This document shows, one piece after another, positions 34,918 through 44,637 of a stretch of 64,000 bases of DNA; position 1 is the stretch's first letter; each line of letters starts with the position of its first letter. Source of the stretch: Pecten maximus. Its lineage: Eukaryota. The stretch is taken from NCBI RefSeq assembly GCF_902652985.1, contig NC_047032.1, forward strand, positions 13,144,001-13,208,000, written 5' to 3'. The notes below the pieces were generated by a model that made no database searches, was not told the DNA's origin, and saw nothing but the letters and a program-made list of their open reading frames with translations. Made by a program: the position numbers and the translations under genes.

Positions 34918-35253
34918 TGAATAGGAAATGAGAGTTCTACGCCACCCTATCCCTCCCATAGGTTTACATAGGGATCCCTCCCTGAAGTAAGGGATCAGTG
35001 AGGGATGAAGAATTGACCCCGTGACCTCTAATTAGAACGCATTCTTAATGTGCTATTATTAGAAATTATAACCGTAGGGGATATACCTTGCGTCATGTTT
35101 ATCCATAGCCCGACAAGTGTATACAGGGCGGTGATCCTCCCCTTTATTGCATCATTGCTATTTTAAGTATTTCTCGGTTTTTCCAAGCTTTGTAACGTTT
35201 ACCTAACGTATTAGTTGCGACAATCCTCCACTCTATTGCATCAGAGCTATTTT
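34918..35253. repeat. Left TIR of the Polinton-like element
   Basis: tgaataggaaat.agagttctacgccacc... matches the reverse complement of 43734-43876 and 42943-43135; internal subrepeat atcctcc.ct.tattgcatca..gctattttaa. Confidence 0.9.
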
Positions 35254-35538
35254 AACATCCACCATCATCCTATGTATACACAGGTAATGTTGAACAAACG
35301 TATCAGTTGAAGGGTGTCACTCGAGGTGAACAGACGTATATGTATACTCGCAGTGAAAACCTGTGGAGTTATCAGTACTGAGGAAGCATCTATATCGAAT
35401 TGTGTATACATTTCTACAAAAACCAGTCAAGCAGAATTTACCTGTGGAGTTCTTATTCCTGCAGAATATCAACATCGACTTGTGTATATATTTTTCCCTA
35501 CACCAACAAAATAGACTTTTACCTGTACGCTAATCACG

Positions 35539-38500
35539 ATGGATATAAGAAAGGAGATGTACAATATAGACACGATAGCAGAGTTAGATAAGTGGGCGAT
35601 AGAAAACAACTTATCAAGCAGCACGGATACGGAGCTAAGTCTACGTCGAATCGCCCTACTTACTGATCAGCCAACCGTGCAACAAACAACAAAGACAAAC
35701 ACATGTTCCATATGCGATAAGGTCTTTAAACAGAAGTGCCTAATGCGACATAACAGAACATTCCACGGGGACTCTAAATATACATGTTCTTACTGCAACG
35801 CGACTTTTAATCGTAAAGACAACTTTAATCGTCATTTAAAATCACACAAGGAAAATATACTATCAATAATGAAAAGAAAATGTGACGAAAATAGCGTTTC
35901 TTCAAGTTAACCAAAGAAGCAGGCAATTGATATTGAGGACAAACCAACCAGTTCTACAAGTCCGTTGAACACAGGAAAGTGTAATTGGTGTATGCGAACA
36001 AAAGTTTTGCTTCCGGGTAAGAAATTTTGTAACGTTTGTGGAGATCAAGGAAGAGAGTGTAACTGGTGTCACCGGCCACTTCCGGAAAGGTTTTATGGGA
36101 AAAGAACAGATGTATGTGATAGATGTTTGACGCGCCGCGATACCTGGACTACCCGTCAACAACGTGGAGGAGGAATCGAGGCTCTTGAATGAACAGCGCA
36201 ATAGGAAACATTAGATCCAAACCCGGGAAATCTTTGGGACATTTTACAGTTTTTCAATGACAATCAAACACAGATTAAAGACATTTTAGAGGAGAGGCTC
36301 AAGGAAATCAAAGGTATGAAATGGTTTCTCACATTATTTGTGAAGTTTGTGAAATATGACCAAAACAATGAACCCATCTATGCTGAACCCACATTTAGAT
36401 CCATTAATTTGACATACACGAACGTAGCAAAGCTAACAGAACAGCTGGCCGAAGCTTTTCAAAACTTACATAATGCCTATCAAATTTTTGAGCGGGATGG
36501 GAGTGGATGGACGATATATAGAATTCTAAAACTCGAAGTGAACACAGTAGAATACACACCGTTAGAGGGCAGTAGTTACATTCCCCTTCCGCTAAAAATA
36601 CAAAAGAAAAGGCTGTTCTGAACATACAAAATACTGACCAAAAATGTTTTTTTTGGTCGGTCCTTGCCGATATGCATCCGGTGTCATATTCCGACCACCC
36701 AGATCGAGTGAAAAATTATAAGCAACATGAAAACGAATTGAATATGACAGGTATCGAATACCCTGTCCCCCTATCTCAAGTATCAAACTTTGAAAAACAA
36801 AACGACATATCGGTAAATATTTTGGGGTTAGAGGGTGACGAAGTGTATCCGTTGTACGTTACCGACTTGCGCAACACTTCGAGACATGTTAACCTTCTCT
36901 TATTTTCAAAAGGTGAAAGCAGACACTATTGCCTCGTAAGAAGTTTGAGCCGTTTGTTAGGCGATCGCACCGCGCACAATGGTCAAACACATTATTGCAA
37001 TTATTGTCTCCATGGCTACACAACACAACAGATGTTAGATGACCATGTTCCATATTGCTCCCCTCACGGTCCTCAAAAATTAAGCTTCCCCAAACATGAA
37101 GAACAACAGTGGGTCAAATTTAATCAAATTCATAAACAGCTCAAAGTCCCTTTTGTGATTTATGCTGACTTTGAAAGCTTTGTACATGTGAACCAAATCC
37201 AGACAAATCATCGACGACTCGGTATCAAAAACATGAACCTTGTGGCTTTTCATACATGGTAAAATGTTCATCCGACGAACTATCGAAATCTGCACAGGTC
37301 TATAGAGGTCCCGACGTAGTTGACAATTTTTTCAAAAAATTGATTCAAGAAGAGGAAAGTATTTGTCAAATTTTAGAAAATGTTAAACCCATGACTTTGA
37401 CTCAAAACGAAAAAATCTCTTTCCAAAATGCAACACAATGTCATATTTGTCAGAAAAACCTTGAAAACGACATAGTTTTCGACCATGATCATTTAGATGG
37501 ACGTTACAGAGGTCCGAGTCACAGTAATTGTAACTTTCAATATCAATTCAGACAAGGGAAAAGGTCACAGAGTTCAAGGTTTTACATTCCTGTCGTGTTT
37601 CATAACTTACGAGGCTATGATATGCATTTGTTGATGGAATCAGCAGGAAAATTCAAATCAAAGACTTTGTCTTGTATTCCAAACAATATGGAGAAGTACA
37701 TGTCATTTTCTCTAGGGAACCTGAGATTTATTGATTCCTTGCAATTTCTAAATGCTCCTCTAAACACACTGGTGTCCAATTTGGTAGCAGAGGGAGTTGA
37801 TAAATTCCCGAATTTATCGAGACACTTCCACAACGAGGAGCATCGCCAACTTCTTCTTCGAAAAGGGGTATACCCATACGATTACCCATACGATTACGCA
37901 ACGTCACCCAAAAAGTTTGATGAAAACAAATTACCTGGAGAAAATCAGTTTTATAATAAACTTACAGAAACGGATCTGTCCGACACAGATTATAGACACG
38001 CGCAATCGGTCTGGCACACCTTCGATATGACTTGTTTTGGTGAGTATCATGACCTTTACTTAAAGACGGATGTCTTACTGTTGGCCGATGTGTTCGAGAA
38101 CTTTCGATCAATCAGTTTAGAATATTACCATTTAGACCCCGCCCATTATTACTCGGCTCCCGGGTTTTCATGGGACGCTATGCTAAAAATGACTGAGGCA
38201 GAACTTCAACTTCTTAACGATATTGACATGGTACTGATGGTTGAAAAAGGTATCCGCGGAGGCGTGTCCATGATTTCAAAAAAGTTTGCTCAGGCTAATA
38301 ATCCCAAAGCACCTGAATATGACCCATCGAAACCAAACACCTGGCTCACGTACCTAGATATGAATAATTTGTACGGTACGAGTATGTCTGAATCCTTACC
38401 GGAAAAAGACTTTGCATGGCTGACACCTGAACAAATTTCAAATTTAGTTGTTTCTAACATTGACGACAACGCGGAAACGGGTTACATTTTAGAAGTTGAC

Positions 38501-42883: not shown

Positions 42884-43135
42884 GTTTGTCTGAGGTAATA
42901 CACATCAACATTAGCTTATGTATACACATTATAAACTGTGCAAAAATAGCTATGATGAAATAAAGAGGAGGACTGTCGCAAATAATACGTTAAGTAAACG
43001 TTACAAAGCTTGGAAAAACCGAGAAATACTTAAAATAGCAATGATGCAATAAAGGGGAGGATCACCGCCCTGTATACACTTGTCGGGCTATGGATAAACA
43101 TGACGCAAGGTATATCCCCTACGGTTATAATTTCT

Positions 43136-43733
43136 ATTCTACCATGTTTGCTATGCAACGCTAGTTTTGATTGGTTTAAAACCATGTATTAGTTTCCAAT
43201 AATACACGGTCGGGAGTCACGGCTGTAACAATTTTATATATCTAATATTCACCCGTTTTATTTAAGGTCACCATAGCCTAGTGGTCTAATGGGCTAGTCT
43301 TTCATTAATTTTTATCACGACGCGAGTTCGAATCCTACGGAGGCCCACTTTTTTTTTTTTTTTATCCCTTCTTTTTATTTTCAAAATCAATGCCATATGA
43401 AAGATGCTCTTGATCGTAGTACTGTATTACCTGTATATTTCATCAACAAATAATGTAATACTCAAGAAATAAATCACAATGTTTTCTCGGGGTTTCTTTG
43501 CTGTTTTTCTATTAGAAAGAGGTCGATCTAAGAACTAAACAGTACATGGTAGAATAGAAATAATCAACTTTGACTCGTGTATTGTTGCAGGATATACAAC
43601 TCGGTCTCTGATATTTTGCAATTTTAATTAATAACTCAGGCCTGCGGCCTTCGTTATTAATTTAATTGCAAAATATCCTCGTCCTCGTTGTATATCCTGC
43701 AATAATACACGAATCATCGTTAATTATTTCTTA
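43136..43733. mobile_element. Hairpin-tailed non-autonomous element (Crypton-like architecture) nested in the right TIR; contains a tRNA-like segment
   Basis: Absent from the left TIR; asymmetric IR tttctattctaccatgt/acatggtagaatagaaa; ~165-bp terminal palindrome; A and B boxes at 43266-43347. Confidence 0.75.
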
Positions 43734-44637
43734 AATAATATCACATTAAGAATGCGTTCTAATTAGAGGTCACGGGGTCAATTCTTCATCCCTCACTGAT
43801 CCCTCACTTCAGGGAGGGATCCCTATGTAAACCTATGGGAGGGATAGGGTGGCGTAGAACTCTGATTTCCTATTCACGAGCACATCGCATTTTTTTCATG
43901 GGATAGTTTCGACTTTCCGAGTTTGTTATATCAGTGTGTAAAATTTCTTATACAGTTCAGGCACCTACTTATTTAACTTCCAAACCTAAGTGAGAACCTT
44001 CTTAAGAAGTAGACTCGTATCCTGTGTCAAAATTTATAAAATGGTGGGTCAAATAAAATCAAGAGAGATGTGAATGAAAGTCTAAAGATGCTGTCATTTG
44101 TATTTAAAACGCAATAATGACATTTATAATGCAGAGTTGACATTTTTTTCGGGATTTATAAATTACTAAGCTTAAGTCGTTTAAGTTCCATGCCGTTCAC
44201 CACATCCTGAAAAAATTCTTCTCTCTGTAAAATTGGACTAGTTGTCTCCCCTTTATGAATCTATAAAACTGAAAATCAACAAGCCGCGCGTGCCTTTATT
44301 GGCTTCTATCGTATACTGAAACGCGAGTTCCCAGGATGGCGGCATCTCTCGCTTGAAACATAAAACCCGATTATTTTCCTCTTTTACAATGTAACGGATG
44401 TAAAATCATAACCTGAATAGTTCCGTCAAATATTGACTGATATAGTTTATAAAATTTCATCGCAAATGGAGAGTTCCCGTCTAGTTTTCTTCAATCTCAT
44501 TAAAATGACACTTGTACATGTACATGTAATTTCCGCTCCTCTACGATCCACTGCAAAACAAGATATAAAAATATCCTGTAAACTGAGATAATTTTTATTT
44601 CAAATTCTGTTGACATAGATGAAGATTAACATCTCGG

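Follow-up and report, generated by a model that had tools for sequence, protein, structure and literature searches.

Analysis of a 64,000-nt stretch of the Pecten maximus genome (the window) reveals a compact Polinton bounded by terminal inverted repeats (TIRs) at positions 34918-43876, which harbours three genes in total: a protein-primed family B polymerase (pPolB) on the plus strand facing an ATPase and an integrase on the minus strand. In our preferred reading, to which we give a probability of roughly 45%, the element belongs to an old bivalve lineage without capsid genes, and its own ATPase would load the DNA into the capsids of a helper Polinton.

Structure of the element

The element comprises 8,959 bp; a later insertion accounts for 597 of these, and 8,362 bp remain once it is removed. 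The first-pass annotation of a TIR-bounded three-gene element of ~9 kb (8.4 kb without the insertion) was borne out. Its features are:

34918..35253, plus strand: left TIR, beginning with TG; a weaker homology extends to ~35293
35539..39612, plus strand: pPolB pseudogene, ATG at 35539, stop at 39612
39613..40078, no strand: convergent terminator gap, 466 bp, AT-rich, without coding remnant
41678-40079, minus strand: long A32/FtsK-type ATPase pseudogene, 533 codons, multidomain
41679..41722, minus strand: integrase-ATPase junction, 44 nt, TATAAA over the integrase stop
42844-41723, minus strand: integrase of retroviral type, 373 aa, frame open, chromodomain at the C-terminus
42943..43136, minus strand: right TIR, inner part, matching the left arm
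43137..43733, no strand: later insertion splitting the right TIR, 597 bp, a MITE/SINE-like composite with a 176-bp palindrome
43734..43876, minus strand: right TIR, outer part, ending with CA, without target-site duplication (TSD)

TIRs are present as in Polintons/Mavericks, the ~336-bp arms (34918-35253 against 42943-43136 plus 43734-43876) matching at 96-98%. The 6-bp TSD of these elements is missing in this copy: no duplication of 5-8 bp was found at symmetrical offsets from -15 to +30, one 4-mer being attributable to chance, and there is no empty site or flank match within the 64-kb window. No tRNA was detected by ARAGORN, and the matches to Rfam were confined to hairpins in the 597-bp insertion that stay below threshold. 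The spacers, described before as 286 bp and 60 bp, are indeed tiny, with 285 nt from the left TIR to the pPolB ATG and a TATA-like box, read off the sequence, ~60 nt inside the right TIR; their longest open frame has 70 aa.

The three genes

The pPolB has two C2H2 fingers, a Cys-rich segment and a QRGG site (36160), along with a putative terminal-protein and a putative vOTU region, assigned after PMC11071308 and by motif patterns; it also contains an exonuclease with an EndoVII/HNH insert and the palm motifs. Exo I-III and Pol A-C motifs are present, as in a protein-primed family B polymerase, and the match to PF03175 is weak (23 bits, below the cut-off). With the pPolBs of capsid-bearing elements the protein shares 47-52% identity. 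In this copy the gene is broken, with three in-frame stops (35908, 36190, 36202), three frameshifts (~36606, ~37200, ~38629) and a 12-bp duplication at ~37871.

The integrase carries the rve domain known from Polintons/Mavericks (PF00665) as well as a chromodomain (PF00385), both above cut-off. Its stop lies within a TATAAA ahead of the ATPase, which confirms the overlap noted in the first-pass annotation.

The ATPase consists of a C2H2 finger, a poly-Pro stretch, the core (Walker A GPTSCGKT, Walker B), a second Cys/His finger, a 7-helix domain and an acidic tail, in total 533 codons compared with ~230 aa of the usual form; a Mizuhopecten homologue has 531 aa (74%). It is of the A32/FtsK packaging type (PF04665, E 0.004; the homologue P0001 also carries PF04665) and groups nested among Polinton ATPases. 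Of 120 homologues, 115 keep Walker B and 114 keep GSHH. Two frameshifts (~41371, ~40963) and two stops (40631, 40556) interrupt the gene. The Pecten copy is therefore a decayed pseudogene copy, in which pPolB and ATPase are broken and the integrase alone is open.

Comparison between elements indicates that the ATPase is under purifying selection at saturated synonymous divergence. A dN/dS below 1 on the ATPase had been named earlier as support for a reduced lineage; the pN/pS of the core is 0.16 against locus L093 and 0.30 against L002, with pS saturated; between such distant elements the ratio does not distinguish the branch on which selection acted. The long form itself is no mark of capsid-less elements, an idea we rejected, because it is found behind the major capsid protein (MCP) and protease genes in L094 and next to the penton gene in L034. 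The extra domains are therefore no adaptation to satellite life, and L094 indicates that the long ATPase is older than the loss of the capsid genes. The C-terminal helical domain is predicted to fold confidently (pLDDT 85.8). Structure comparison of this domain gave a best E of 0.17 in BFVD, generic helices in VIA (best Z 6.7) and a blank in the atlas, which does not show that the modelled fold is new; a PDB sequence search with the ATPase profile returned zinc-finger matches only.

Missing virion genes and the central gap

A search for jelly-roll remnants, proposed earlier, was run with profiles in six frames; nowhere in the element did it give a signal for MCP, penton, core or protease. MCP profiles of 118 and 18 sequences had no match there and detected the controls, including capsid fragments of 25-47 aa in control loci; the family was identified as MCP by an atlas double jelly-roll match (PF21738, share 22-30%). 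Penton and protease profiles (13 and 6 loci) found nothing within the window, the protease ORFs of the relatives being identified by PF00770 and the penton label inferred from position and size. A PDB sequence search with the MCP profile gave 0 matches. The element thus lacks the MCP, penton and maturation protease of virion-forming polintoviruses and adintoviruses.

The first-pass annotation had described a 466-bp central gap without coding remnant and with two abutting poly(A) signals. The former holds (74% AT, longest open frame 56 aa). The latter does not, as the AATAAA sites at 39905 (plus) and 40000 (minus) are ~90 bp apart, with a third at 39668 (minus); because shuffles of the gap show AATAAA on both strands in 47.5% of cases, the pair is not above chance and we discarded it as evidence. 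Moreover, the gap was the wrong site to look for a deletion scar. The capsid block of the relatives usually lies between integrase and ATPase, and it is the 44-nt junction which occupies the place of their penton-core-MCP-protease genes.

Relatives in other individuals and other bivalves

Sequence from other individuals supports a natively capsid-less lineage over a one-off deletion, as first proposed. The integrase-TIR joint is found in three of three DNA runs from three studies (depth 46, 52 and 178 in X1, X3 and X4), and two overlapping X1 contigs (39574-40028, 40006-40442) tile the central gap. Among the contigs listed none spans the integrase-ATPase junction by 31 nt in both directions. 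At six of the breaks of the copy in the window (35908, ~36606, 37871, 38629, 40963 and 41371), contigs from other individuals carry a different sequence for most or the whole of their depth. A 3,980-nt contig of an RNA library covers pPolB in one piece; the RNA-library run X17 covers neither ATPase, integrase, TIR nor flank, which cannot rank the genes. Members of the family occur in many public runs of farmed bivalves.

The integrase forms a clade with proteins from Argopecten, Crassostrea virginica, Saccostrea and Pinctada (support 96/91 with 17 rows, 100/100 with 15 rows). In all five clade loci (L001, L002, L003, L015, L018) integrase leads directly to ATPase, the zinc-finger ORF beginning 35-74 nt past the integrase stop; this stop lies within a TATAAA in all but L001. 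In L002 and L018 the TIR end of the Pecten element is found upstream of the integrase, with the first 21 nt of the left TIR identical in L002 and 21 nt (positions 9-29) in L018. L002 continues through the ATPase, which contains a GT-AG intron, into 447 nt of non-coding sequence where the contig stops, matching the right half and gap of the Pecten element. The contigs of L001, L015 and L018 stop inside the first finger of the ATPase, and in L003 no pPolB was found within ~900 nt past the decayed ATPase. A capsid gene is seen in none of the five loci, three of which are short, compared with penton and/or MCP in 54 of 78 integrase loci outside the clade, usually directly after the integrase.

Adjacency of integrase and ATPase alone is no proof of capsid loss, because L011 and L012 of another clade show it too, followed by a PZ-like gene. 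In L093, within the ATPase clade, a PC4-like gene takes the place of the integrase upstream. L035, an 8.4-kb arrangement of ATPase, integrase and membrane ORF facing pPolB, was rejected as a second compact element; both its ends are open, an extra ORF lies past pPolB, and its integrase groups with penton-bearing L034 and L029. Contigs with clade proteins have 9.1-10.8 kb and are ambiguous as to capsid content, because in relatives that do carry a capsid the distance between integrase and pPolB end is just ~9.6-10.1 kb.

No second complete TIR-to-TIR three-gene element was found among the relatives examined, nor a helper sharing the TIRs; the TIR pattern search of genome contigs gave 0 matches. 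Nine 17-mer TIR matches in viral contigs were treated as chance, tblastn showing no Polinton gene. Viral contigs gave no match to the integrase, whether scanned with the single sequence or its alignment, nor to the alignment of the long ATPase; the pPolB alignment had one match, to the HNH only. Capsid-encoding Polintons are present in other molluscs (Crassostrea, Gigantopelta).

How the lineage may persist

If the preferred reading holds, an ancestor with the order integrase-penton-core-MCP-protease-long ATPase would have shed the four genes in between in a single event, which would place the stop of the integrase on the TATA box of the ATPase. Intact copies would leave their site, be copied by protein priming that starts at the TIR ends, and insert again, all within the cell. 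The ATPase would be kept with fingers and acidic helical tail recognising the element's own DNA and the core docking on the helper capsid. The QRGG site before the terminal-protein region would be cleaved by the protease of the helper acting in trans, or alternatively by the vOTU domain of the element itself or an enzyme of the host. That these elements form a widespread bivalve satellite of Polinton viruses, replicating and integrating by themselves and using a zinc-finger-armed motor to package their three-gene genome into helper capsids, seems rather unlikely to us.

A possible, if less favoured, explanation is a pure self-synthesising transposon of the same old lineage which never enters a particle and whose ATPase works in the nucleus, for instance as a TIR-binding protein, as a motor of excision or strand displacement, or as a transcriptional regulator. 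The junctions in individuals, the clade and the five loci fit it equally; the fingers and acidic tail resemble a DNA-binding regulator, the L002 ATPase has a spliceosomal intron, a feature not shared by intact vertebrate Mavericks, which have no introns (PMC8097293), pure transposons are known among Polintons without a capsid (PMC4405056), and no helper was found. On the other hand, packaging is the role ascribed to the Polinton ATPase family, and an element that turns into a pure transposon is believed to lose its capsid, protease and ATPase genes jointly (PMC4028283). Capsid losers mostly drop the ATPase: nine of the tabulated MCP-less Polintons are without it and two have the ATPase alone (PMC4028283). 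A non-packaging role was not found in the literature searched, and conservation of the core motifs equals that in capsid-bearing L094.

It is improbable that capsid loss is fairly recent and confined to the family in this host, a deletion derivative spread by the element's own polymerase and integrase, with the relatives in other bivalves keeping capsid genes elsewhere in the element and the ATPase constraint dating mainly from ancestors that still had a capsid. In its favour, none of the relatives is complete, the order of the genes varies (L011, L012, L034, L035, L093, L097), pN/pS is silent on the branch of selection, and the clade contigs could fit a capsid-bearing span. Against this stand L002, which mirrors the right half and gap, L018 with TIR end, integrase and finger start, and the absence of capsid genes from the clade loci. 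A one-off deletion affecting this copy alone is largely refuted and hardly credible, as is a chimera of two elements made in assembly: despite the decayed copy, the missing TSD and partial junction coverage among the contigs listed, the junctions recur in other individuals and hosts, and the 44-nt junction keeps the stop/TATA overlap of L002, L003, L015 and L018.

Comparison with known systems

With Polintons/Mavericks (polintoviruses; the animal "adintoviruses" of Beta-PolB type) the element shares TIRs, a pPolB with long N-terminus, an rve integrase with chromodomain, an A32/FtsK-type ATPase and the convergent two-module layout. By profile, the weak PF03175 match would fit the Beta class of PMC8502044. 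It differs in size (8.4 kb, vertebrate Polintons 12.7-24.6 kb; PMC8097293), in lacking MCP, penton, PW/PZ core and protease, in its ATPase (~530 compared with ~230 aa), and in its TG..CA ends instead of AG/AGT motifs without a 6-bp TSD in the Pecten copy. Polintons without a capsid in Trichomonas, Entamoeba and Hydra, together with the N1 derivatives of Danio, have likewise lost the virion genes for a transposon life; unlike the Pecten element they also lack the ATPase, and they measure 11-42 kb.

Polintons with the ATPase but without MCP, penton and protease are already tabulated, namely P_Pd1.1 (Platynereis dumerilii, 10,777 bp) and P_Gi1.2 (Glomus intraradices, 11,019 bp; PMC4028283 Table S1). 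By table entry their presence/absence pattern is that of our element; both are single larger elements, for which PMC4028283 gives no lineage or selection evidence. We found no description of the clade in the literature outside Repbase, subscription papers, figure images and bioRxiv supplements. Animal Polinton virions have not been observed according to PMC10748475.

A cross-species clade without the four structural genes but with a constrained ATPase would point either to capsid parasitism or to a second, nuclear job of this ATPase family, and both answers are testable in farmed bivalves. Parasitism of another Polinton's capsid, if true, would be relevant to the question of virion formation by Polintons in animals. 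Phage satellites (PICI/SaPI) possess their own integrase, replicase and DNA-packaging specificity factor and take the capsid from a helper, on which their dependence is proven. They are bacterial and not homologous, so that the likeness is one of working only; by this analogy, a satellite in bivalves would be their animal counterpart and indirect evidence of animal Polinton particles.

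Anatomy of the element

The Polinton is 8,959 bp long, of which 8,362 bp remain once a 597-bp insertion is left out, as the first-pass annotation had estimated (~9 kb and 8.4 kb). It is bounded by terminal inverted repeats (TIRs) of ~336 bp each, which are 96-98% identical and of which the right one is interrupted by the insertion. Its parts are:

34918-43876, whole element
35539-39612, + strand, pPolB
41678-40079, - strand, ATPase
42844-41723, - strand, integrase
43137-43733, insertion in the right TIR

The TIRs enclose 7,689 bp, of which genes occupy 6,796. That only these three genes with small spacers are present was borne out: Pfam finds C2H2 fingers, EndoVII and a weak DNA_pol_B_2 match on the + strand, rve, chromo and a weak Pox_A32 match on the - strand, and the four spacers of 285, 466, 44 and 98 nt have longest open frames of 70, 56, 14 and 32 aa, respectively. 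The three-gene feature is thus real. The convergent poly(A) signals of the central gap, described as abutting, are actually ~90 bp apart, and their frequency is at chance level. No target-site duplication was found at the element ends. The pPolB possesses the full set of exonuclease and palm motifs. Because pPolB (three stops, three frameshifts) and ATPase (two frameshifts, two stops) are disrupted and the integrase is the sole open gene, the window copy is dead.

The insertion is a composite of a 21-bp inverted pair (43127-43147/43544-43564) and a 176-bp palindrome (43556-43731). Visual inspection suggests a tRNA-like stretch with A and B boxes and a poly-T end near 43277-43362; ARAGORN and Rfam gave nothing firm on the insertion. 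The Polinton directly adjoins the third of three decayed copies (2311-3114, 20278-21046, 33735-34850; 70-86% alike) of a segment with collagen-like Gly-X-Y repeats. The window also contains two tandem arrays, one of 10/19/29 bp (46094-47461) and one a 41-bp satellite extending over ~3.1 kb (48057-51230), and a dispersed ~220-bp repeat in four copies of 90-97% identity and both orientations (21546-21799, 29328-29552, 56926-57127, 61132-61396). A Q-x-G-G motif at 36160-36171, upstream of the putative terminal protein and present also in L081, L099, L007 and L035 (related loci on metagenome or genome contigs), resembles sites at which adenain/Ulp1-type proteases cleave.

Search for a capsid module

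Profiles of the major capsid protein (MCP), penton, core, protease, PZ-like and PC4-like genes were made from related loci, together with a second, deeper MCP profile of 118 sequences. The MCP family was identified via the atlas (DJR-like PF21738 clusters, score 0.98, family share 22-30%) and the protease by PF00770, while the penton, core and PZ labels follow from location, length and resemblance to one another. No profile matches the element in any of the frames, even when stops are read as X, and the same deeper MCP search picks up MCP fragments of 25-47 aa in control loci; the capsid module is absent and the central gap has no coding remnant, as first proposed. Several protease controls were part of the first profile run, and the deeper run had none.

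Integrase clade and gene order

Integrase loci comprised the best 80 of 96 from metagenome contigs and three from genome contigs; the IQ-TREE phylogeny used 42 rows of an 86-row FastTree set, the omitted rows being distant loci. In it the window integrase groups with Argopecten, Crassostrea virginica, Saccostrea, Pinctada, L001, L002 and L003 in a clade of 15 rows (100/100), and the inclusion of L015 and L018 gives a wider clade of 17 rows (96/91). The commonest order in relatives is integrase-penton-core-MCP-protease-ATPase, therefore the 44-nt integrase-ATPase junction of the window marks the site of the missing structural block. All five clade members whose flanking DNA is available have a zinc-finger ORF of long-ATPase type (~530 aa, A32/FtsK-type) that starts 35-74 nt past the integrase stop; the contigs of L001, L015 and L018 reach only its first finger. 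The reported overlap of integrase stop and TATA recurs, the stop lying inside TATAAA in the window and in four of the five. A penton or MCP gene is present on 54 of the 78 non-clade contigs and on none of the five clade contigs, three of which have <600 nt downstream. Upstream of the integrase, the initial 21 nt of the window's TIR are matched in L002, and 21 nt at TIR positions 9-29 are matched in L018; in a TIR-end scan of 88 loci these two ranked highest (22 and 19 of 24; next 17).

Related sequence in other individuals

The nearest named integrase is from Argopecten (85%), and the nearest named match to the ATPase tail is a 531-aa Mizuhopecten protein (74%); both genera are scallops, which points to a scallop as the host. 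The element interior is partly present in 20 of 24 listed runs (9 studies), with at most 66% of its words. Contigs of four public runs (DNA runs X1, X3 and X4, RNA-library run X17) compared with window 34700-42900 occupy all identity bands from <90% to >99%, therefore several subfamilies exist. Each of the three DNA runs contains the integrase-to-TIR junction (depth 46, 52 and 178), and in X1 the central gap is covered by two contigs that overlap each other (39574-40028, depth 34; 40006-40442, depth 39); contig depth does not equal copy number. At six break sites, contigs that make up much or all of the depth differ from the window. One 3,980-nt contig piece from the RNA library covers pPolB. 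Among the contig pieces listed, none spans the whole 34700-42900 stretch and none crosses the integrase-ATPase junction with 31 nt on each of its two sides.

The long ATPase

At least 371 ATPase homologues were found, many full length and often several per species, in Mizuhopecten, Pecten, Argopecten, Pinctada, Mytilus, Solemya, Mya, Ruditapes and Mercenaria. Of 120 homologues, 115 retain Walker B, 114 GSHH and 77 Walker A; 10 of 17 chosen for inspection start downstream of Walker A. The expected constraint (dN/dS<1) is reflected in a core pN/pS of 0.16 against L093, 0.30 against L002 and 0.29 against L094, which bears capsid genes; synonymous sites are saturated in these comparisons. The ratio is ~0.5 for the helical tail, which is confidently predicted as a seven-helix domain and gave no identified match. 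Since L094, from the sister group of the window's ATPase clade (0.969), encodes core-MCP-protease before the long ATPase and L034 has it with a penton, gene order indicates that the long form predates capsid loss. In L097 (299-1972) the long ATPase comes ~390 nt after a penton-like and a core gene, with neither MCP nor protease in between, possibly an intermediate stage of loss.

Further layouts were seen elsewhere: L035 (2456-2962) has a predicted 168-aa membrane protein with Cys-rich N-terminus between integrase and convergent pPolB, and in L102 (420-5112) pPolB converges with an integrase-like ORF across just ~20 nt. L081, L094, L099 and L100 are whole animal-type Polintons on contigs filed under bacterial symbiont MAGs, most likely host DNA.

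Interpretation

We favour, at a probability of about 0.45, a stable capsid-less lineage that would replicate by protein priming, integrate through its own integrase and retain the ATPase for packaging its DNA in putative helper capsids. Phage satellites are an analogy for such helper dependence. A nuclear role of the ATPase in the same lineage is a serious, if more doubtful, alternative. As both readings include it, a cross-species capsid-less lineage is rather likely. Counted against it are that none of the relatives examined was seen whole, that L003 lacks pPolB within ~900 nt past its decayed ATPase, that a PC4-like gene lies upstream in L093, a member of the ATPase clade, and that in L011 and L012, of another clade, the integrase adjoins the ATPase, followed by a PZ-like gene, so that adjacency alone is no proof of loss. 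Moreover, capsid-bearing relatives need just 9.6-10.1 kb from integrase to pPolB end, and contigs of 9.1-9.9 kb with clade integrases are therefore only suggestive. No helper came to light in this host; the molluscs in which MCP genes were observed are Crassostrea and Gigantopelta. That the element is a recently derived, host-specific form, with capsid genes retained elsewhere in its relatives, is conceivable but improbable. Very improbable is a chimera or a one-off deletion: the integrase-TIR junction and the central gap recur in other runs and the integrase-ATPase junction in the clade loci, so the element is probably not a one-off, as the first-pass annotation proposed.

Comparison with known Polintons

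We found no literature account of this clade, although Repbase or closed supplements may contain one; the accessible portions of 10.1101/2025.04.19.649669, PMC10294476 and 10.64898/2026.10.13.758929 do not describe it. Available parts of other sources define Alpha and Beta PolB (PMC8502044), describe TP and vOTU domains (PMC11071308) and, in a nematode Polinton study, include mollusc elements in one figure. Vertebrate elements are covered in PMC8097293, as far as accessible, with sizes and 6-bp TSDs; intact Mavericks are intronless there, whereas the L002 ATPase has an apparent GT-AG intron (~160 nt, ~2521-2682) splitting Walker A. Capsid-less Polintons are regarded as pure transposons in the available text of PMC4405056. 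In that of PMC4028283 ATPase and protease are missing as well from nine Polintons without MCP, and its Table S1 gives P_Pd1.1 and P_Gi1.2 as retaining the ATPase only; therefore, though without interpretation in that portion, the ATPase-only pattern is already on record.
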